A DNA stretch of 50,123 bases from Clostridiales bacterium. GTDB lineage: Bacteria; Bacillota; Clostridia; Lachnospirales; WRAX01. Shown here in pieces: positions 12,570-38,100 of this stretch; position 1 is the stretch's first letter; each line of letters begins with the position of its first letter. The notes beneath the pieces are model-generated. The model was not told the DNA's origin. It ran no database searches and worked only from the letters and a program-made list of their open reading frames with translations. The DNA is taken from NCBI GenBank assembly GCA_031265685.1, contig JAISCI010000029.1, positions 1 to 50,123 of the forward strand, in the 5' to 3' direction. The translations under genes and the position numbers were made by a program.

Positions 12570-12708
12570 ACTAATCCCATTTTACAAAGACGGGTAAAAA
12601 TTTTTCAGTTCGCGCCAAGGAAGTTTGCTTGGTTCACGCAAACTTCAGAGCCGCGCGAACGCGCTGACGCTTGAAAAATTTTATCCATAAATCTAAATGG
12701 GATTAGCA

Positions 12709-15597: not shown

Positions 15598-15655
15598 GAT
15601 TTTCGCGGGTTCAGGCGAGAATCACAGCGGATTTTCGCGGATTCAGGCGAAAATC
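15598..15655. repeat. Tandem pair of family-A units
   Basis: gattttcgc-gggttcag-gcgagaatc and gattttcgc-ggattcag-gcgaaaatc. Confidence 0.85.
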
Positions 15656-20109: not shown

Positions 20110-20213
20110 GAATTTTGCTTGACAGAAGTTTGCATCGCATTTTCGCTTGGATGAATTTTGCGGCTTTACGCAAAATTCTGTCAGGCGAAAATACTTCGAT
20201 TCAAGCAAACTTC
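20110..20213. repeat. Nested family-A composite (outermost right arm lost)
   Basis: gaattttgc / gaagtttgc / gcattttcgc / gaattttgc..gcaaaattc / gcgaaaatac / gcaaacttc. Confidence 0.88.
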
Positions 20214-20219
20214 ATCCAC

Positions 20220-30017: not shown

Positions 30018-30213
30018 TACCGCACATCACCTCAACTCTCAGACCACGCAAAAACGCACAAAGCCACAGCAAAAGCCCTCGGAACACGGTATAATAAAAG
30101 CGGCGAAAACGATTGCGGAGGCGACGATCATGCCCAAGCAGGGCAAAAACCGGAACCGACTGACGCTGATCCCAATATGTCCGGGCGATTATATTGAATC
30201 TAACAGCGTATGA
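30018..30213 (+). mobile_element. IS1182-family left end and truncated transposase stub
   Basis: MPKQGKNRNRLTLIPICPGDYIESNSV* (30130-30213); DNA aligns with 49908-50123. Confidence 0.7.
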
Positions 30214-30297
30214 AGTATAGTGTTTGAGAATGCGTCATAGACTTAACGGGTCTCCCCTTATCGCAGCTTTTGACGTGATCAAACGAAGACTTACTTG

Positions 30298-30696
30298 ATT
30301 AGGGCGCAGGAGGAAAAATTGCGAAGCTATGCGGTAGCCAGGGATTGGGCGGTCTACAAAATTTACGCGGACGAGGGAGTCAGCGCGAAGGACATTGATG
30401 GCCGCCCGGCGGTCAAGTAGTTGATTGCGGACATTACGGAGGGCAATGTCAACAATGTGCTGGTCTATAAAATCAATCGTTTGACGCGCTCGGTGAAAAA
30501 TCTGATTGAGTTGGTTGACTTGTTCAATCAGCACCGTTGCGCCTTTAACTCGTTAAACGAGTCGATTGACACCACCACCGCCACCGGGCGCATGTTCCTA
30601 AAAATCGTGGGGATTTTCGCCGAGTTTGAGCGGGAGAACTTGGCGGAGCGGGTACGGCTGGGACTGGAGCGGAAGGTGCGCGAGGGCTATACCTAA
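30298..30696 (+). pseudogene. Serine recombinase (resolvase catalytic domain) fragment
   Basis: IRAQEEKLR..IYADEGVSA..RPAVK* then VLVYKINRLTRS..IDTTTATGR..FAEFERE; in-frame TAG at 30418-30420, no YxRVS nucleophile, premature end. Confidence 0.85.
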
Positions 30697-30802
30697 AGCC
30701 TTTCACTCATCAAGTAGGGTTTTCCGTCTTTTTTTATCCCGCCGAGTATATCGGTCGCTTTTAATCTAAAAACTCTGTGGAAAAAGGTACTTGATTACCC
30801 GG

Positions 30803-30920
30803 TTGACAATATCGCAAGGCGTGATATAGTCTATGTCAGAGTTTTTAGGCATTAAAAACCAACGTCCTTACCGTCTAAAGTTCGGGGGCTTTTTTTGCTT
30901 TTTAGGCACTAAAAAAGCCC
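30803..30920 (+). promoter_or_regulatory. SigmaA-like promoter followed by two palindromic boxes and a terminator-like hairpin
   Basis: TTGACA-16-TATAGT (extended TG); TTTTTAGGCAYTAAAAA at 30842-30858 and 30899-30915. Confidence 0.55.
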
Positions 30921-31130
30921 TTTTGTTGGTGGCAGATGTACAAAAACATACATTTTGGCAAATGATTTCTCACCTGCCAGTCGCAAAAAGGCTTTCAATA
31001 ACAATATGTTATAGTATGTTTTTGTTTTTTACAATCCCTATTTGCCATGGTTTCGTCTGATTTGTCCGGCAAAACGCCGATAAATTGCGAAGTCGGCACG
31101 AATTGCCCGGCTGATCCGCCGTAAATCTTT

Positions 31131-31604
31131 TTAGTCGTGCTGATCCTTTCGCAAATATTTGTCCACAAAGTCCGAAAAATCGCGCGCCGCGCCCTCGTCC
31201 GCGTAATCGTCCCAAAGCCAGACGGCGTTACCCTGCGCTTCCTGAACGCACACGCCCTCGCGCACAATCGTCCGGTACACGCGCGTCTCCAGTTTCGCGG
31301 CCCAAGCCATCATCAGGCTTATGTACAGCCGCTCGTTGTTCGTCGCCCTGTTTCGCCCCAGAAGAATGCCGTCAATCCGCAGCTTTGGGTTAAGCTGGCG
31401 AATTTCCGGCAGACCTTCGATCAGGTTGACACAGCCTTGAACGTTCGCGCTGTCGGGATGAAGCGTGATGATCATATCGTCGGCGCAGTTCGCGGCTTGC
31501 AGCATCTGCATCGTTCCGACCAGCGGCTGGTTGTCGATGACGATGTAGGAATATTCAGACTTTATCGGCTCCAGCGCCTTGTCAAGCGCCTTGACGCCGT
31601 TCAT
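31131..31604 (-). pseudogene. ParA/Soj family ATPase, C-terminal fragment
   Basis: YSYIVIDNQP Walker B region, LNPKLRIDGIL, TIVREGVCVQEAQ; Walker A missing. Confidence 0.75.
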
Positions 31605-31833
31605 CGACGTGCTGGAACTGTTCTACCAGATGGCCGCTCTGTCCAAAACATTTTCCAAAAAACGTCAGGGAAAAAGTGAGCCATATATCCGGTGTAGGCT
31701 ACCCTCGGATAGGCAAATCATAATAAGGACATCTCTCATAGAAAATAAAGCCAACTGTATTTTGAGCCATACCCAACTGGGCATATGCATTATAACATAG
31801 ATGAAATGCCGTGACAGGACATTTAAGGAAAAA

Positions 31834-32145
31834 TTATCCTCTCGCCACTTGGGGTTGGTCGTTCCAATTCTTGAAATTTTTGTTCGGCAAGTGTAGCCGC
31901 GTGTTTGGGTGTTTTGCCCGGATTTTCTCTATAAATTCGCGGCCAGCCTCGTCGTTGTCCACGCACAAAACCGGCTCGGCTCCCACTCCGGCGACGCCGA
32001 GCGTATGCTCCAGCACGTTTTCTTTCAACCCCGCCAGCGATACCAAAAGACATCCGGTCAGAGACTTGCCAACGCCGCGCTCAATCTCAATAAAAGATAA
32101 CAAATCAATTCCGCTCTCAAAATAGAACGCATAGGCGGTCTTTTC
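31834..32145 (-). pseudogene. Toprim-domain (conjugative-element primase-like) fragment
   Basis: FESGIDLLSF..VSLAGLK..LCVDNDEAG..KNWND. Confidence 0.7.
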
Positions 32146-32399
32146 ACCGAAGTGAAACTATTTCCAGACTTCCGCGGATCAACGCTATATGCCCTGTCGA
32201 TTATTATAGCGCTTGTCGTGATGAATTTCAAGTGATATTGCTGCTGATATTCTTACCGACGCGCGTTACTTTAGGGTTATGATGAACATTTTCGCCTGTC
32301 TTTCTTGCGCATCCCTATTAATTTATGCTATAATTAAATAACTAATGATTAATTAAAAGGAAGGCGGTATATATGGGCTAAAAGTGAAAAGTAAAAGGT

Positions 32400-32520
32400 A
32401 ATTTTCGCCTGATGGAATTTCGCTTGGTTCGAAGCATTTTTGCTTGGACGAAGTTTGCTTGAACCACGCAAACTTCTGTCACGCAAAAATGCGATGCGAA
32501 ATTCGTACCCGCGAAAATTC
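32400..32520. repeat. Complete four-level nested family-A composite
   Basis: Arm pairs aattttcgc/gcgaaaatt, gaatttcgc/gcgaaattc, gcatttttgc/gcaaaaatgc, gaagtttgc/gcaaacttc. Confidence 0.92.
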
Positions 32521-32559
32521 ATGCCGAAAAGGCAATCCAAGAAAGAAGGTTAACTGTTA

Positions 32560-35500
32560 ATGAAAAAACGTATTCCGCGAGCGGTGTCGGCGATTGCTCT
32601 GGCGGTATTGATGTGCCTGCCGGGCGGTCTGACCGCCCAAGCGGGGATCGGAGACGTTGACGGCGCGTGGAGCGCGGGGCTTGTGCTTGACCTGCCGTTC
32701 GACGGGAACCTGACGGACGCGACGGGCAAACACACCGTAACCGCCGCCAACTACGACGGCGCGACGACGGTAACTTACGTAAACGGCGCGGACGGCGGCG
32801 CGAACCGCGCGGTGCGGCTGTCCGGCAATACTTATCTGAACATTGGTTCTGAGGCCGACTTGAACCCGGAGAGCATGACGCTGTCGTTCTGGATTAACCC
32901 GAGCGCGGCAATCACCGGCGAGCAGATTGTCATGTGGAACAAGAACGCCTACAATTCCGCGGGCTGGTACGTAACGCTGCTGTCCGACACCGTACCGATC
33001 AAGCTTTCGGTCGGTACGGAGCCGTTCGAGATAAGCGTGCACGGCGCGCGTGCCGATTTCTTCCCGGTCGGCAAATGGACGCACATCGCCGTCACCTTTG
33101 ACGGCACCGCAAAAGAGACCCGGATATTCCGCAACGGCGTACCGCAGACTCTGAGCGTAGACCAGGGAAGCGCCGCGAGCGCCGCGATTTCTGACAGCGG
33201 CGTCCACAAATCCATCGGATGGAACGGGCCTAACCACCATAACGGCGGATGGCTCGCGAATTCGGCGCTCGACGGTCTGAAGCTGTTCGACGGCGCGGTG
33301 ACGGAACAGGAAGTTGTGGAACTGTACAACGAAGCCGGGACAAAACTCGCGGCGACGGCGGACTTCACGTCGGACGTTATTCTGGATCTGAAATTTGACG
33401 GCGACACGAACGACGCGTCATCCGGCGCAAATAACTATAGCGTCGCCTCGGGAACCGCCGGATACACGACCGGAGTGGACGGCGCGGCGAACCACGCGTT
33501 CCTATTCAACGGATCGACTTGGCTGGAAACCCCGGCCTCGGGCAGCGAAGACTTGAACCCCGAATCGTTTACGGTCTCCTTTTGGGTGAAACCGACCGGG
33601 ACGATGAGCGGAGAGCAGATCTTTTTCTGGAACAAGAACCAGTATAACCAAGCCGGCTGGTATATCGGATCCAATACGAACGATAAGCCGCTTGTCGTAT
33701 CGGTCGGCGTGGGTACGGGCGGATCGGGCAGCGGGCAGCCGCTGGAATTTAATATTGAAACATCGCGCGCGGCGTTTTTCCCGGCGGATACTTGGACGCA
33801 TATCGCCGTGTCGTATGACGGCGCCGCCAAGGAATGCAAGATATATCGCGACGGGATAATGCAGATTGCCGCCGACGGCGCGACAACGGGCAACGCGACG
33901 GCGGCGGGGGCGGTCGCGGACAGCGGCGTCAAGAAGATGATCGGGCGCAACGGACCATCGCACAACAGCGGCGGAAACCTGAGCGTCGCGCTTGACAACG
34001 CGCTGATGTGGAAGAGGGTAGTCCCGCAGAACGCGCTCGCGGATCTGTACGGACTCCACGCGGAGCTGGACGCGCAGGCTCTCGTCAATAAGGATACCGT
34101 CTCCCTCCCGGCGCAGATATCGTCGAGTATAACGCTGCCCGTTATCGGTCAGCAGGGTTCCCGCGTACGGTGGATCAGCTCGTCCCTCCCCGGAATTCTT
34201 TCCGCGGATGGAACCGTCGTCCGACCGGAGGAAACGACTGAAGTGACGCTAACCGCGGCGTTCACCTACGACGGGAAGACGGCGGTAAAAACGTTCACCG
34301 TGACGGTATTGGGGCGGGACGAATCGGACGGCACGGTAGTGCTCGAGGAAATGATGGAAAATATCGGCACGGACAGCGTGGAGCTGCTCGACGCGTACCT
34401 CTTGAACAACGAGATGAACGACGTGTCGTACCTGCTTTCACTTGACCCGCAAAGGTTCCTGTACCACTTCTACAAGACGGCCGGCGTAACGCAGCCGACG
34501 GGCAACACGGCTTACGACACACTGAACGGCGAGGCGACCTGGGAGCGCACGAACGACCTAAACTTCCGCGGACACATGTTCGGGCACTGGCTGGGCGCTT
34601 GCGCGCTGGCGTACCGCTCGGCGGACACGACGACCGATCAAAAGTCTCGGCTGCTGACGAAGATTCAAACCGCGCTCGCTGGGCTCGCGGCCTGCCAGAC
34701 CGCCTACGGAAACACGTACAGCGGCCGCGGCGGCTACATCGCGCCGTTCACCGAGAAGCGTCTCTATGAGCTGGACGGCGTTTCGGGCGGCGGCTACCAA
34801 ACCGCTTACGACGGAACCGTCTATGTGCCTTACTATAATCTTCACAAAGTTGTGGAAGGCCTGCTGCAAGTTTACTCGAGCTTCCGCGACATCGGAACGA
34901 CTACGGCGGCGACTGAGTCGGCGAGGGACGACGCTTTGGAGATAGTTTCCAAATTCGGCGACTATATGTACGACTGCCGCGTCAATAACGCGTCCTGGTC
35001 GGACTCGAGGACGCAAGGCACCGAATACGGCGGCTTCAACGAGGCTTTTTACGAGCTTTACGCCATAACCAAAAGCGCTAAGCATCTGCGCGTCGCCGAG
35101 GCTTTCGACGAAACGAGCAACTTCCAGCGCATGGTCAACGGCGAGGATTACCTGACGGACGTACACGCCAACACGACTATCCCGAAATACATCGGCGCCG
35201 TCAAGCGGTACGAGGTGTTCACGGAGAACGAAACGCTCTACAACACGCTGACCGCCGCCCAGCGGGAACAGCTTACGTCACTGTATCTGACGGCGGCTGA
35301 GAATTTCTGGGACATTGTAGTCCGCGATCACAGCTACATCACCGGCGACAACTCGACGGGCGAGCATTTCCGCTCTATCGTCGGCGGCAACGGGCTTAAG
35401 TACGACGCGGTGACGCGCAACCCGCCCGAAACCTGCGAAACCTGCAACGCCTACAACATGCTGAAGCTGACGCGCGAGCTGTACAGGATCACGGGCGACA

Positions 35501-37338
35501 AGAAATACTCCGACTTCTACGAGCGGACGTTCATAAACACGATCGTTTCGTCGATGAACCCGGAAACGGGCGGCATGACGTACTTCAACCCGATGTACTC
35601 GGGCTACTACAAACTGACCAACGCGAACCGCTTCTGGTGCTGCACGGGCACGGGCGTCGAGAACCACGTCAAGTACGGCGACTCGATCTACTTCAAGTCC
35701 GGCGGGGACGTATTTGTCAACATGTACTACTCGTCGATTCTGACGCTGACGGAGCTGAACCTCAAGCTGACCCAGGAGACAAGCATCCCCGTTTCCGACT
35801 CGGCGAGGTTCACCGTAGCCACGGCGTCCGGTTCGGGCGAGGTAGCCGCCGGCACTAACCTGCGCTTCCGCCGGCCGGATTGGATCGCGGGTACGCCGAC
35901 GGTTAAGGTAAACGGGGATGAAACGGCGGCGGTGATCGAGGGCGGATACATCGTCGTTAAAGGCGCCGCCGCGGGCGATGTAATCGAGCTGACCATCCCG
36001 GCGGGAACCGAGGCGTGGAGCGCCGCGGACGACGCGAGTTTCGTCGCTTTCCGCTACGGGCCGCTCGTGCTTTCGGCCACGCTCAGCGCCGTCGCGGACG
36101 TTTCGGCGGGCGACGGTACGGGCATATTGGTTCTCCACTCGTCCGACCCAGCGTCGGAACCCAACACGATCAACATCACCAACGGTCAGACGGTCGCGGA
36201 GTGGAAAGCCGACATAAACAACAACCTAGTACGCGCGTCCAACGCGACAAAGACGATAACCGGCAAGACGGGGACGATCAGCGTACCGCAGATCCGATTC
36301 CAGCTTACGGGTACAAGTCAGGACAGCCTTGTCTACATACCGCACTACATGCAGTACGCCAACCGTTACGGATTGTATATGAACGTCAAGACCGGCCCGG
36401 CAGCCCCGGCGCCCGAGCGGGAACCGATCCTGCGCTATACGTTCGACGCGGGCACGATAACCGGCACAACCGTCGAAGACGTAACCGGCAACGGCAACGA
36501 CGGCGCGCTGATGAGCGGAGCGGCGGCGTCCGCGTCCAGCCCGTTGGGAAATACCATGGGCAGCTCGCTTTCGCTGGACGGCGGCGCTCAATATGTCGAT
36601 ATCACGACCAACCCGCTTGACGGGCTTGTAAACTTCACGATATTGGCGTGGGTCAAGCCGGACGCGCTGGACAGCTGGGCGAGGGTGTTCGACTTCGGCC
36701 CGTCAGGCGAGAAGCCCGGCCTGTTCTTCACGATCAACAGGGGGAGTAATTTAGGGCGGCTGGCGTTTGAAACCGCCTCGTCAAACACGGCGGTGAACCT
36801 TACAAGCGCGCTTTCAACCTCCGCGTGGGCGCACCTTGCCTGCGTTATCGACGGGACGAGCGCCCGGCTCTACATCAACGGCGTCCTGGCGGGCGAGAAC
36901 GCCGCGTTTAACTATGATTCGGCGCTGGCGGGTCAATTTTCCGACAACTACCTCGGCAGGTCGCAATACGGCGGCGACGAGTACTACGACGGCGGTATCG
37001 ACGATTTCCAAATCTACAACTACGCGCTGTCCGGCGACGAGGTCGCGGACATATACCGAGGCGAGGAACCGCGGCGCGACCTTGAGTTCTCGTCGACGCT
37101 CAGCCTGACCGCGCAATGGCAGGCGGAAGTCCACAATCCCGGATACTTCGACAGCGAAAGCGTGACGGTCATCGTCGCGTACTACAATGCGGGCGGACGT
37201 CTTATCTACGTCCTTACAAAATCCGGGACGGTCGCGGGGTTGGGTTCGCTGACCCTCAACGAGTACGCGCCGCAGGGGGCGGCGTCCGCTAAGGCGTTCT
37301 TCTGGGACACGGCGTCATATGTTCCGCTGACGGCGTGA
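32560..37338 (+). CDS. Secreted GH127/GH146-type beta-L-arabinofuranosidase with three LamG-like domains, an Ig-like domain and a conserved C-terminal domain
   Basis: Signal peptide; FRGHMFGHWL, PYYNLHK, EYGGFNE, HANTTIPK, ETCNAYNMLKL, FWCCTGTGVE; LamG-type W.HIAV.FDG motifs. Confidence 0.9.
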   Translation: MKKRIPRAVSAIALAVLMCLPGGLTAQAGIGDVDGAWSAGLVLDLPFDGNLTDATGKHTVTAANYDGATTVTYVNGADGGANRAVRLSGNTYLNIGSEADLNPESMTLSFWINPSAAITGEQIVMWNKNAYNSAGWYVTLLSDTVPIKLSVGTEPFEISVHGARADFFPVGKWTHIAVTFDGTAKETRIFRNGVPQTLSVDQGSAASAAISDSGVHKSIGWNGPNHHNGGWLANSALDGLKLFDGAVTEQEVVELYNEAGTKLAATADFTSDVILDLKFDGDTNDASSGANNYSVASGTAGYTTGVDGAANHAFLFNGSTWLETPASGSEDLNPESFTVSFWVKPTGTMSGEQIFFWNKNQYNQAGWYIGSNTNDKPLVVSVGVGTGGSGSGQPLEFNIETSRAAFFPADTWTHIAVSYDGAAKECKIYRDGIMQIAADGATTGNATAAGAVADSGVKKMIGRNGPSHNSGGNLSVALDNALMWKRVVPQNALADLYGLHAELDAQALVNKDTVSLPAQISSSITLPVIGQQGSRVRWISSSLPGILSADGTVVRPEETTEVTLTAAFTYDGKTAVKTFTVTVLGRDESDGTVVLEEMMENIGTDSVELLDAYLLNNEMNDVSYLLSLDPQRFLYHFYKTAGVTQPTGNTAYDTLNGEATWERTNDLNFRGHMFGHWLGACALAYRSADTTTDQKSRLLTKIQTALAGLAACQTAYGNTYSGRGGYIAPFTEKRLYELDGVSGGGYQTAYDGTVYVPYYNLHKVVEGLLQVYSSFRDIGTTTAATESARDDALEIVSKFGDYMYDCRVNNASWSDSRTQGTEYGGFNEAFYELYAITKSAKHLRVAEAFDETSNFQRMVNGEDYLTDVHANTTIPKYIGAVKRYEVFTENETLYNTLTAAQREQLTSLYLTAAENFWDIVVRDHSYITGDNSTGEHFRSIVGGNGLKYDAVTRNPPETCETCNAYNMLKLTRELYRITGDKKYSDFYERTFINTIVSSMNPETGGMTYFNPMYSGYYKLTNANRFWCCTGTGVENHVKYGDSIYFKSGGDVFVNMYYSSILTLTELNLKLTQETSIPVSDSARFTVATASGSGEVAAGTNLRFRRPDWIAGTPTVKVNGDETAAVIEGGYIVVKGAAAGDVIELTIPAGTEAWSAADDASFVAFRYGPLVLSATLSAVADVSAGDGTGILVLHSSDPASEPNTINITNGQTVAEWKADINNNLVRASNATKTITGKTGTISVPQIRFQLTGTSQDSLVYIPHYMQYANRYGLYMNVKTGPAAPAPEREPILRYTFDAGTITGTTVEDVTGNGNDGALMSGAAASASSPLGNTMGSSLSLDGGAQYVDITTNPLDGLVNFTILAWVKPDALDSWARVFDFGPSGEKPGLFFTINRGSNLGRLAFETASSNTAVNLTSALSTSAWAHLACVIDGTSARLYINGVLAGENAAFNYDSALAGQFSDNYLGRSQYGGDEYYDGGIDDFQIYNYALSGDEVADIYRGEEPRRDLEFSSTLSLTAQWQAEVHNPGYFDSESVTVIVAYYNAGGRLIYVLTKSGTVAGLGSLTLNEYAPQGAASAKAFFWDTASYVPLTA

Positions 37339-37539: not shown

Positions 37540-38100
37540 GTTTTGTTGATGTCGGTATATTCGTAGGCGTCAGCGGCGTCCAGCCCTTGGACGTCCGACA
37601 GTACGTAGTGCCGGTCAGGATTTTGCCCCAATCCCCAAAATTCGTTTCCTATCCGCACTGATTGATTTCCTCACGAATCAGCGTGACTTCCAGCATTTCA
37701 AGCACCGGCCAGCCCTTCACTGAATTTTGCGGGTCCAAGCAAAATTCACCTCGCTAAAGTCCGCGACAGCGCTAATTCCGTCTGCGTACGCACACTGTGC
37801 CTGTCGGACGCCGATACTCCGTTGATCGTAATCGGCGCGGAGATATTGGCGCCGCCTGTCACTGTTTGATACTGCCATTGGTTATTTATAGCGCTTGCCG
37901 CCGCTCCCGCCACTGAATTTTGCGTGGTTCAAGCAAAATTCATCAGGCGTTGTAACGCGCCGCCTTGCCTACTGAATTTTGCGTGGCCCTTGCAAAATTC
38001 ATCGCGGCGGCGCGGATGTCGCCCAGCCGCTCCCTTATCTCGCCAAGGAATTTCGCTTGATTCACGCGAAATTCTGAGAAGCCCTCGGCGTCCATCCGCG
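37540..38100 (-). pseudogene. Possible phage tail relic (tape-measure tail / distal tail-like), riddled with family-A units
   Basis: Minus-strand pieces TVTGGANISAPITINGV..ELALSRTL and MLEVTL..YVLSDVQGLD loosely resemble siphophage tail genes; weak. Confidence 0.3.
37722..38074. repeat. Four family-A units (37722-37747, 37915-37941, 37974-38000, 38048-38074)
   Basis: Each is gaattt(t/c)gc-N8/9-gc(a/g)aaattc. Confidence 0.9.

Follow-up and report, generated by a model that had tools for sequence, protein, structure and literature searches.

A nested palindrome lies upstream of a GH127 gene

We analysed a 50,123-nt stretch of DNA from a Clostridiales bacterium (the window; contig C87 in our numbering), in which a 120-nt composite palindrome at 32400-32519 ends 40 nt before the ATG (32560) of a gene for a GH127 beta-L-arabinofuranosidase-like protein. 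The genome is a metagenome-assembled genome (MAG) of 2.216 Mb in 130 contigs, with 58.5% GC and a rated completeness of 91%, and the sequencing run that bears the locus is labelled termite gut metagenome. The original prediction, made from the sequence of the window alone, had described the composite as a four-level Matryoshka palindrome in which each unit sits in the loop of the previous one, had placed it 40 bp upstream of the GH127 start, and had proposed that serial insertion into hairpin loops built it. The position was confirmed and the nested parse proved literally correct, with four perfect nested stems of 9, 9, 10 and 9 bp from the outside inward. The parts of the composite are listed below; unit types A, B and C are defined in the next section, and junction sizes give the nucleotides on the two sides.

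32395-32399, plus strand: 5' flank aaggt, as is usual for free A-type units
32400-32408, plus strand: level 1 (outermost, A-type), left arm AATTTTCGC
32409-32414, plus strand: level 1-2 junction (6x6), left side ctgatg
32415-32423, plus strand: level 2 (B-type), left arm GAATTTCGC
32424-32433, plus strand: level 2-3 junction (asymmetric), long 10-nt side ttggttcgaa
32434-32443, plus strand: level 3 (C-type), left arm GCATTTTTGC
32444-32449, plus strand: level 3-4 junction (6x6), left side ttggac
32450-32476, plus strand: level 4 (innermost, B-type), full 27-nt unit
32450-32458, plus strand: level 4, left arm GAAGTTTGC
32459-32467, plus strand: level 4, 9-nt loop ttgaaccac
32468-32476, plus strand: level 4, right arm GCAAACTTC
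32477-32482, plus strand: level 4-3 junction (6x6), right side tgtcac
32483-32492, plus strand: level 3, right arm GCAAAAATGC
32493-32495, plus strand: level 2-3 junction, short 3-nt side gat
32496-32504, plus strand: level 2, right arm GCGAAATTC
32505-32510, plus strand: level 1-2 junction (6x6), right side gtaccc
32511-32519, plus strand: level 1, right arm GCGAAAATT
32520-32522, plus strand: 3' flank cat, as is usual for free A-type units

When 131 nt around the composite were folded as DNA and as RNA and compared with 200 shuffles, the predicted fold consisted of exactly the four helices in one long hairpin. The DNA fold reached -33.9 kcal/mol against a shuffle mean of -17.0 (z -5.34) and the RNA fold -50.5 kcal/mol against -30.5 (z -5.32), with 0 of 200 shuffles as good in either case. 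A repeat search of the window also returned the composite arms, as merged imperfect inverted repeats (I2, I3). Together, these results confirmed that the composite is real and far beyond chance.

That the palindrome is an artefact of MAG assembly at a palindromic repeat is hardly credible. Several of the 130 contigs start or finish in these repeats, and a second assembly breaks at the palindrome centre. However, contigs of the second assembler, obtained from the probable source run, covered both halves (30065-32471 and 32466-33000) with zero differences and overlapped at the centre; they share their sample with the window and are therefore not independent evidence. Moreover, the four stems are all different, so that fold-back of one sequence cannot produce the composite, and 202 non-overlapping composites in the genome follow one junction grammar, one of them being located in frame inside aroB.

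It had further been stated that removing each inner unit leaves a normal single unit. This is exact for the outer level, where taking out the level-2 unit together with the 2 nt that flank it on either side joins ctga to accc and so regenerates ctgaaccc, the canonical loop of 8 nt, but the loops of the other two levels come out one base short or one base different. The units cited for comparison are indeed present at 15598 (gattttcgc-gggttcag-gcgagaatc) and at 12620 (gaagtttgc-ttggttcac-gcaaacttc); the latter, however, is nested inside a larger palindromic MITE (miniature inverted-repeat transposable element) and is not free.

The units belong to a lineage-specific palindrome family

Each unit consists of a 9-10 bp stem, AT-rich in this 58.5% GC genome, and a loop of 8-9 nt. 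The following types were distinguished:

A type: aaggt-AATTTTCGC, an 8-nt loop, for example ctgaaccc, then GCGAAAATT-cat; 46 free copies, often tandem
B type: GAA[TG]TT[TC]GC, a 9-nt loop xTG-NNN-CAy, then the complementary arm
C type: arms GCATT[AT]T[CT]G[CT]
D and E types: rarer

In our reading of the one-level units, most of the 46 free A-type copies are flanked by (a)aggt and, at the opposite end, by cat. At 15598-15655 of the window, two A-type units stand in tandem with a period of 32 nt. Around the 100 free B units, the flanks tended only loosely towards A-A-K (left) and M-T-T-G (right), and an extra paired base was absent from 60 of them.

Common to all unit types is a loop core, TGRWYC or its complement. 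Of 870 perfect 8-bp hairpins whose loops measure 8 or 9 nt, 367 contain this core, compared to 9 after shuffling of the loop letters, and it is carried by at least 10 different stem families, a spread over many stems that fits a protein reading the loop. Where the loop has 9 nt, the two bases that adjoin the stem are G..A or T..C and never pair, constituting a conserved mismatch, and folding predicted a 2-bp TG/CA mini-stem around a triloop.

The B pattern GAAKTTYGC-N8-9-GCRAAMTTC occurs 264 times in this genome and 0 times when read backwards. A search of 150 other genomes of the order returned a single match, in one genome (G004), which we read as chance because its loop is without the family core and its arms are not fully complementary. 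Neither JGI metagenome contigs nor viral contigs contained the pattern (0 matches in each), and two other termite-gut MAGs contained 2 units each, on single contigs. Judging from these sequence searches, the family is private to this lineage and, in kind, is like the repetitive extragenic palindromic (REP) elements.

Nesting follows one junction grammar throughout the genome

To describe nesting genome-wide, we used a chain finder that was seeded on family motifs and accepted 9-bp stems with at most 1 mismatch and junctions of at most 12 nt per side. It returned 470, 92, 70, 25, 14, 3 and 1 chains of one to seven levels, respectively, compared to 82-113 one-level chains, 1-4 two-level chains and 0 deeper chains in three shuffled genomes. 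Separate classification of left and right arms likewise yielded LR 232, LLRR 33, LLLRRR 15 and LLLLRRRR 3, together with 23 tandem LRLR arrangements. The deepest pure stack is a seven-level chain of 211 nt on C95. In our own reading, stems of other palindromic MITEs figure among the levels of 7 of the 18 chains with at least five levels and of 6 of the 25 four-level chains.

Junctions depended on the types that they join. Writing the outer unit first, C>B junctions were 6x6 in 47/47 cases, B>C junctions 10x3 or 3x10 in 62/67, A>B junctions 6x6 in 15/17 and A>C junctions 9x3 in 3/3. The type orders were B>C (69), C>B (47), B>B (43), A>B (11), A>C (6) and C>C (1), and this genome-wide count included no A-type unit inside a B or C unit. 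C units are chiral: when all are oriented by their GAA side, the GTT triloop is present in 33/38. The one-, two-, three- and four-level forms with like junctions, for which the original prediction had proposed to look, all exist, and the same grammar extends up to seven levels.

The greedy open reading frame (ORF) caller that we used over-calls, with 83% coverage and 311 of 675 chains placed in an ORF, and the context of the 420 chains that remained after filtering to the family can be given as rough bounds: 259 were intergenic, 93 lay at most 200 nt from the 5' end of an ORF and 29 lay deep in long ORFs. Within the window we observed eleven further one-level units (at 190, 263, 472, 14545, 27541 and 37722-38074), four of which are clustered just downstream of the GH127 gene. 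A second stack is located at 20113-20215 and contains B, B, C and B units from the outside; its outermost right arm was undetected, and repeat copies from elsewhere pile up there in aligned contigs.

Deep composites are unique and combinatorial

If the ~120-nt A>B>C>B hairpin were a MITE copied as a whole, with later differences kept paired by arm-to-arm correction, near-identical composites should be common, and some likeness was indeed apparent. Over the full 120 nt, six further loci are 82-89% identical to the composite, their levels and junctions in the same order (A/B-B-C-B architecture), and the typed architecture ABCB has 5 occurrences. Composites drawn from so few unit types, however, already have about 80-88% identity when unrelated; the median best match between composites was 0.80-0.88. 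No twin at 90% identity or more was found for any of the 25 four-level chains or of the 18 five- to seven-level chains, and every intermediate depth is abundant. The ~120-bp composites are thus not near-identical copies of one MITE without intermediates, the scenario that the original prediction had named as its refutation.

Consistent with this, arm subtypes at adjacent levels were independent of each other (permutation p 0.115 for B>C, 0.144 for C>B, 0.29 for B>B and 0.56 for A>B), as is predicted by free combination and not by copying of whole composites. Among shallower chains, twins at 95% identity or more were present for 23 of 69 three-level and 11 of 90 two-level chains, and some composites have clearly spread as wholes too. 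As the origin of the composite at 32400-32519, we nevertheless regard whole copying as quite improbable.

Units occupy the loops of an unrelated element and lie inside a conserved gene

An unrelated palindromic MITE, here called P (four subfamilies, central stem GTYCGCGC), occurs in the genome in empty, filled and deeper states. By our own reading of the listing, 4 copies have an empty 6-7 nt loop (C58:8173, C106:5915, C61:72487 and C4:11126), 19 hold one B unit in the loop, in either orientation, and 9 carry nests that go deeper or are partly deleted (B>C, B>B, B>C>B and B>C>B>C). The empty P loop tgaacc is the unit family's own loop core. In one P subfamily the arms of empty, B and B>C copies are 86-95% alike, so that the states are intermixed among close relatives. 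In line with some copying of whole nests, a single nest is common to three B>C-type copies of one P subfamily, and in one of these copies it is partly deleted. The B unit at 12620 of the window is located in the loop of a P copy (12575-12700, stems called at 12599-12680) with nested arms AATTTTTCA / GTTCGCGCC.

A nest was also found inside a conserved gene. In aroB (3-dehydroquinate synthase; C1:2186-2815, L013/L043) a three-level nest, E>D>B, followed by further E-type remnants, forms an in-frame insert of ~24 amino acids. This insert is missing from 4/4 aligned homologues, all from other genera, and the match splits at this point in 11/11 relatives that have a match, which indicates that the elements are mobile and reach once-empty sites; their commonest location is in hairpin loops. 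Apparently in-frame B-unit inserts of 9 amino acids are present in long ORFs on C36, C55 and C65, as read from this genome alone.

Units at such unrelated sites also bear on the idea that the composites grew in place without a transposase, the number of levels being changed by loop breakage or replication stalling and by template switching or ectopic gene conversion between the short arms. Traces of such processes are present. At C19:26937-27002 the left arm of a B unit, atc, the left arm of a C unit, a loop and the right arm of a B unit make up a half-nest, precisely what a B>C nest would become through deletion or slippage between its 12-nt direct repeats; recombination and slippage therefore contribute to the form of these loci as well. 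At C5:24233, a stack of four B levels (B>B>B>B) has tandem repeats with a period of 15 to its left and right, and asymmetric arm patterns were numerous (LRR 27, LLR 14, LLLRR 10 and LLRRR 10), a part of which may be explained by imperfect detection. The absence of a suitable transposase from our Y1 and TnpB searches, described below, points the same way. In contrast, in-place duplication would give a surplus of identical subtypes at adjacent levels, which the B>B pairs did not show. The junctions are non-complementary, chiral and nearly invariant, and units are found at sites as unrelated as aroB and the P loop. Arms of 9 bp are, in addition, very short for homologous repair. We therefore consider growth in place an unlikely origin of the composite.

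A model of loop-directed insertion

Our preferred reading, to which we assign a probability of roughly 0.55, is that the composite comprises four stacked members of a lineage-specific family of REP-like, non-autonomous palindromes and was built by loop insertion. The units would be non-autonomous single-strand hairpin elements, recognised by a putative protein via the loop core and the mismatch, and the same loop feature at the apex of any resident hairpin, be it of the own family or of an unrelated palindromic MITE, would form the preferred target. Each round would place a new unit into the middle of an older loop, and its repetition would result in Matryoshka palindromes. A round would add the unit plus 2-4 junction bases, a net gain of about +30 nt for B and +33 nt for C, and would leave a fixed internal loop, 6x6 around B and 10x3 around C. 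At 32400-32519, an A unit with its usual flanks (aaggt and cat) would have been established first, followed by B, C and B in inward order. We infer this outside-in order, the single-stranded hairpin loop as target and an enzyme for which the loop core is the likely site of recognition and cutting.

The serial loop insertion put forward by the original prediction is supported by the depth series, the independence of subtypes, the empty and filled states of one host MITE and the aroB insert, and units appear to settle preferentially in the loops of earlier copies. This support does not extend to the direction of change, insertion or loss, or to the mechanism. Only tentatively, and at somewhat less than even odds, do we suggest that the stacks reflect a loop-directed, self-targeting transposition of single-strand DNA, recognising structure together with loop core, carried out by an enzyme that is neither Y1/RAYT nor TnpB, and able to stack units to seven levels; such a mode has not been described for bacterial repeats.

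Besides the signs of whole copying reported above and the enzyme searches reported below, several observations weigh against loop insertion. Removal of the insert restores the host loop exactly at level 1 of this composite, in the D host in aroB and in some P copies, but in 9-nt host loops one base is then missing or changed, and removal of a C unit leaves the host loop without its last 2 nt. No uniform rule of restoration applies: beyond the unit itself, P hosts gain 2 extra bases, 9-nt loops 3 and 8-nt loops 4. We detected no target-site duplication, the same triplet being present on both sides in only 1 of 47 C>B junctions. Stems detected with at most 1 mismatch were perfect in 88% of innermost and 84% of outermost levels, a weak age gradient, and a looser form of this comparison was confounded by register shifts and tandem cross-pairs. 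Free C units are all but absent, an oddity if the unit moves independently; among 11 one-level chains assigned to type C, we read about 8 as lying between undetected arms of an outer unit or as chance, and 3 as A-like variants.

Nor did comparison between genomes provide an ancestral state. A 2.5-kb query from the locus had no match among the genomes of 40 relatives, none of which belongs to the same genus. Only the probable source run was found to hold the locus in a search of sequencing runs, a second run having a 0.04 share of its words and a third none. The aligned contigs of the runs contained no allele with fewer levels, X2 having no cover at 30343-32343 and pieces that are ~5-9% divergent from the window, from which no inference about absence follows. 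With no orthologous empty/filled pair found among relatives, runs or JGI contigs, insertion and loss are therefore not separable at any single locus, and this too counts against the insertion reading.

Of four single cut-site rules that were tried, each held for some host types but not for the rest, and all were rejected: a unit flanked by 2 nt at either end, a unit with a 3-nt 5' flank, a triloop replaced by a 33-nt unit, and a target duplication of 3 or 4 nt.

Candidate enzymes and other repeats

Searches of this genome gave 0 matches to Y1_Tnp (PF01797, RAYT), for which control genomes were positive, and 0 matches to the TnpB zinc ribbon (PF07282); the genome being 91% complete, the absence of a Y1/RAYT gene is not proven. 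We found 8 IS110-like and 9 tyrosine-recombinase matches, neither group being tied to the units. The search for a parent insertion sequence (IS) covered four Pfam transposase and recombinase families, and IS copies are often unassembled in MAGs. No ORF bounded by unit arms was found.

IS110-like genes were considered as the mover of the units and set aside, no link being derivable and the C122 ORF having no adjoining nest. On C46, the open frame of the IS110-like match contains a B unit, and nests are present to the left and right of the match. Fragments of IS110 DEDD domains are located beside or between clusters of nested palindromes at C37:9486-9668, C52:3567-3869, C4:2683-2826 and C46:87172-87726.

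Two further repeats came to light. A second palindromic MITE family, rich in AAAATCACCCACCC and its complement, is present at 96-98% identity on C104, C121, C46 (36089), C119, C33, C37, C60 and C7, and also at 956-1100 of L019, a contig binned into a different termite-gut MAG. A 118-nt repeat of 99-100% identity occurs at contig ends in both assemblies (L019 1-118; C54:1-118, C55:1-118, C94:2-121, C118:2-119 and C21:10403-10521). Its position suggests an unassembled multi-copy element, in which a transposase may be hidden, and its presence on L019 suggests that this contig comes from a close relative or is mis-binned.

Relation to known repeat systems

Like the REP elements and bacterial interspersed mosaic elements (BIMEs) of proteobacteria, the units are short imperfect palindromes that occur in hundreds of copies, are mostly extragenic and have conserved mismatches, and they are found both singly and in ordered clusters, including tandem ones. 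In BIMEs, however, units lie side by side in alternating orientation, whereas here they lie inside each other's loops, up to seven deep. RAYT genes are usually flanked by their REPs, which have a conserved tetranucleotide at the 5' foot of the hairpin; in contrast, we observed only the loose flank preference of the 100 free B units and, for the A type, aaggt and cat. REP stems are described as G+C rich (Delihas 2011, PMC3184786), unlike the AT-rich stems reported here.

The REPIN/RAYT system resembles the present family in being non-autonomous, hairpin-forming and lineage-confined (Bertels & Rainey 2011, PMC3116915). According to the sections of that paper that we drew on, two REPs in inverted orientation make up the REPIN doublet, tandem arrangements predominate among higher-order forms, and nesting is occasional and, unlike here, is not described as loop-directed, multi-level or fixed in its junctions (PMC3116915). 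Within this limit, it is the nearest precedent that we found. Set beside the REP/REPIN-RAYT system, our family is a high-copy, short, imperfect and mainly extragenic palindrome (264 B units, 367 core hairpins, 259/420 chains intergenic) in a 91% complete genome with no PF01797 match. Its commonest form is a single hairpin of 26-27 nt (LR 232) and its composites are nested, so we found no inverted doublet as replicative unit.

Classical MITEs are defined by terminal inverted repeats (TIRs) and a target-site duplication (TSD). The arms of our units could pass as TIRs, but the flanking triplets are not direct repeats. Derivation from IS200/IS605 elements (PATE-like) calls for TnpA (Y1), TnpB or both, along with subterminal hairpins, and the genome had matches to neither PF01797 nor PF07282. 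Rickettsia palindromic elements are tolerated in frame within protein-coding genes, as is the nest in aroB, but are longer and unrelated in sequence; to our knowledge, they have not been reported as nested stacks. In plants, MITEs insert into MITEs, and nested copies have been used to infer insertion preference. These are eukaryotic, TIR- and TSD-based elements with sequence-defined targets, whereas our units show no TSD and have the hairpin apex as their landing point.

Several insertion sequences (IS1397/ISKpn1, IS621 and ISPpu9/10) target REP hairpins (Tobes & Pareja 2006, PMC1525189). As in our family, a mobile element there lands on a small extragenic palindrome, but the guest is a full IS with its own transposase, whereas here it is a palindrome of 27-35 nt of the same family. 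Our literature search returned no description of regular, multi-level loop-in-loop stacking with fixed junctions in bacteria; individual examples of nesting may appear in supplementary files to Bertels & Rainey and to Tobes & Pareja. The family is thus REP/MITE-like, yet lies outside both REP-RAYT, no RAYT, foot tetranucleotide or doublet having been found, and the classical MITEs, lacking a target-site duplication.

Outside RAYT systems, little has been learnt so far of the way in which bacterial REP-like repeats select sites and spread. This genome provides a natural series from an empty loop to seven units with near-invariant junctions, from which the chemistry of insertion is in principle readable, and its family appears to manage without RAYT, until now the one enzyme family with a link to REPs. 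Should loop-directed insertion be confirmed, hairpin apices, which are exposed in single-stranded DNA, would be seen to serve as safe-harbour targets, and selfish elements could thereby multiply with little damage to the host. The stacks break short-read assemblies, add in-frame peptides to proteins such as AroB and put very stable hairpins in 5' untranslated regions (UTRs), as upstream of the GH127 gene.

The GH127 gene and its upstream region

The composite is flanked by the following features:

32326-32334, plus strand: extended -10-like motif TGcTATAAT, read from the sequence and not part of the repeat
32560-37338, plus strand: ORF of 1592 amino acids for a secreted multi-domain GH127 beta-L-arabinofuranosidase-like protein

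The ORF contains PF07944 (E 2.8e-69) and PF20736, representing the catalytic and middle domains, and three Laminin_G_3 domains. If TGcTATAAT is used as a -10 element, the composite is in the 5' UTR of the GH127 mRNA, where we think it probably lies; the motif is absent from the list of our consensus promoter scan, and its -35 has 3/6 matches. In that position the composite would probably make an RNA hairpin of -50 kcal/mol, leaving the purine-rich ribosome-binding region free.

This location, between an extended -10-like motif and a start codon 40 nt further on, and the very stable predicted RNA fold with a free ribosome-binding site are what one would expect of a selected regulatory RNA or DNA structure, a 5' UTR hairpin or protein-binding array that controls GH127. 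Units of the family, however, occur in every gene context, on both strands and in some cases within coding sequence, and the family is confined to one lineage. No T-run follows the composite stem on its 3' side, where catgccgaaaagg is found, and the composite is not among the terminator-like sites of the window scan; it is therefore not an intrinsic terminator, which would have a GC-rich stem with a T-run behind it. With Rfam 15 covariance models the composite had no gathering-level match, the best being three miRNA models (E 0.13-0.66, 19-22 bits compared to gathering scores of 76-130). We consider a selected regulatory origin very improbable. The stack may have acquired a regulatory side-effect on GH127, and any effect on its expression would be a by-product of the stack.

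Residues 324-434 of the GH127 protein have a weak Pfam match (E 2.3e-6) to the lectin-like N-terminal receptor-binding family of clostridial neurotoxins, with no stretch passing alone. Most likely, this match reflects a concanavalin-like carbohydrate-binding fold beside the Laminin_G_3 domains. On the minus strand, 32203-32231 is a strong match to a sigma-70-like promoter (TTGAAA, 17-nt spacer, TATAAT; 11/12) directed away from GH127, and the 430-nt AT-rich spacer upstream of the gene may be a divergent promoter region.

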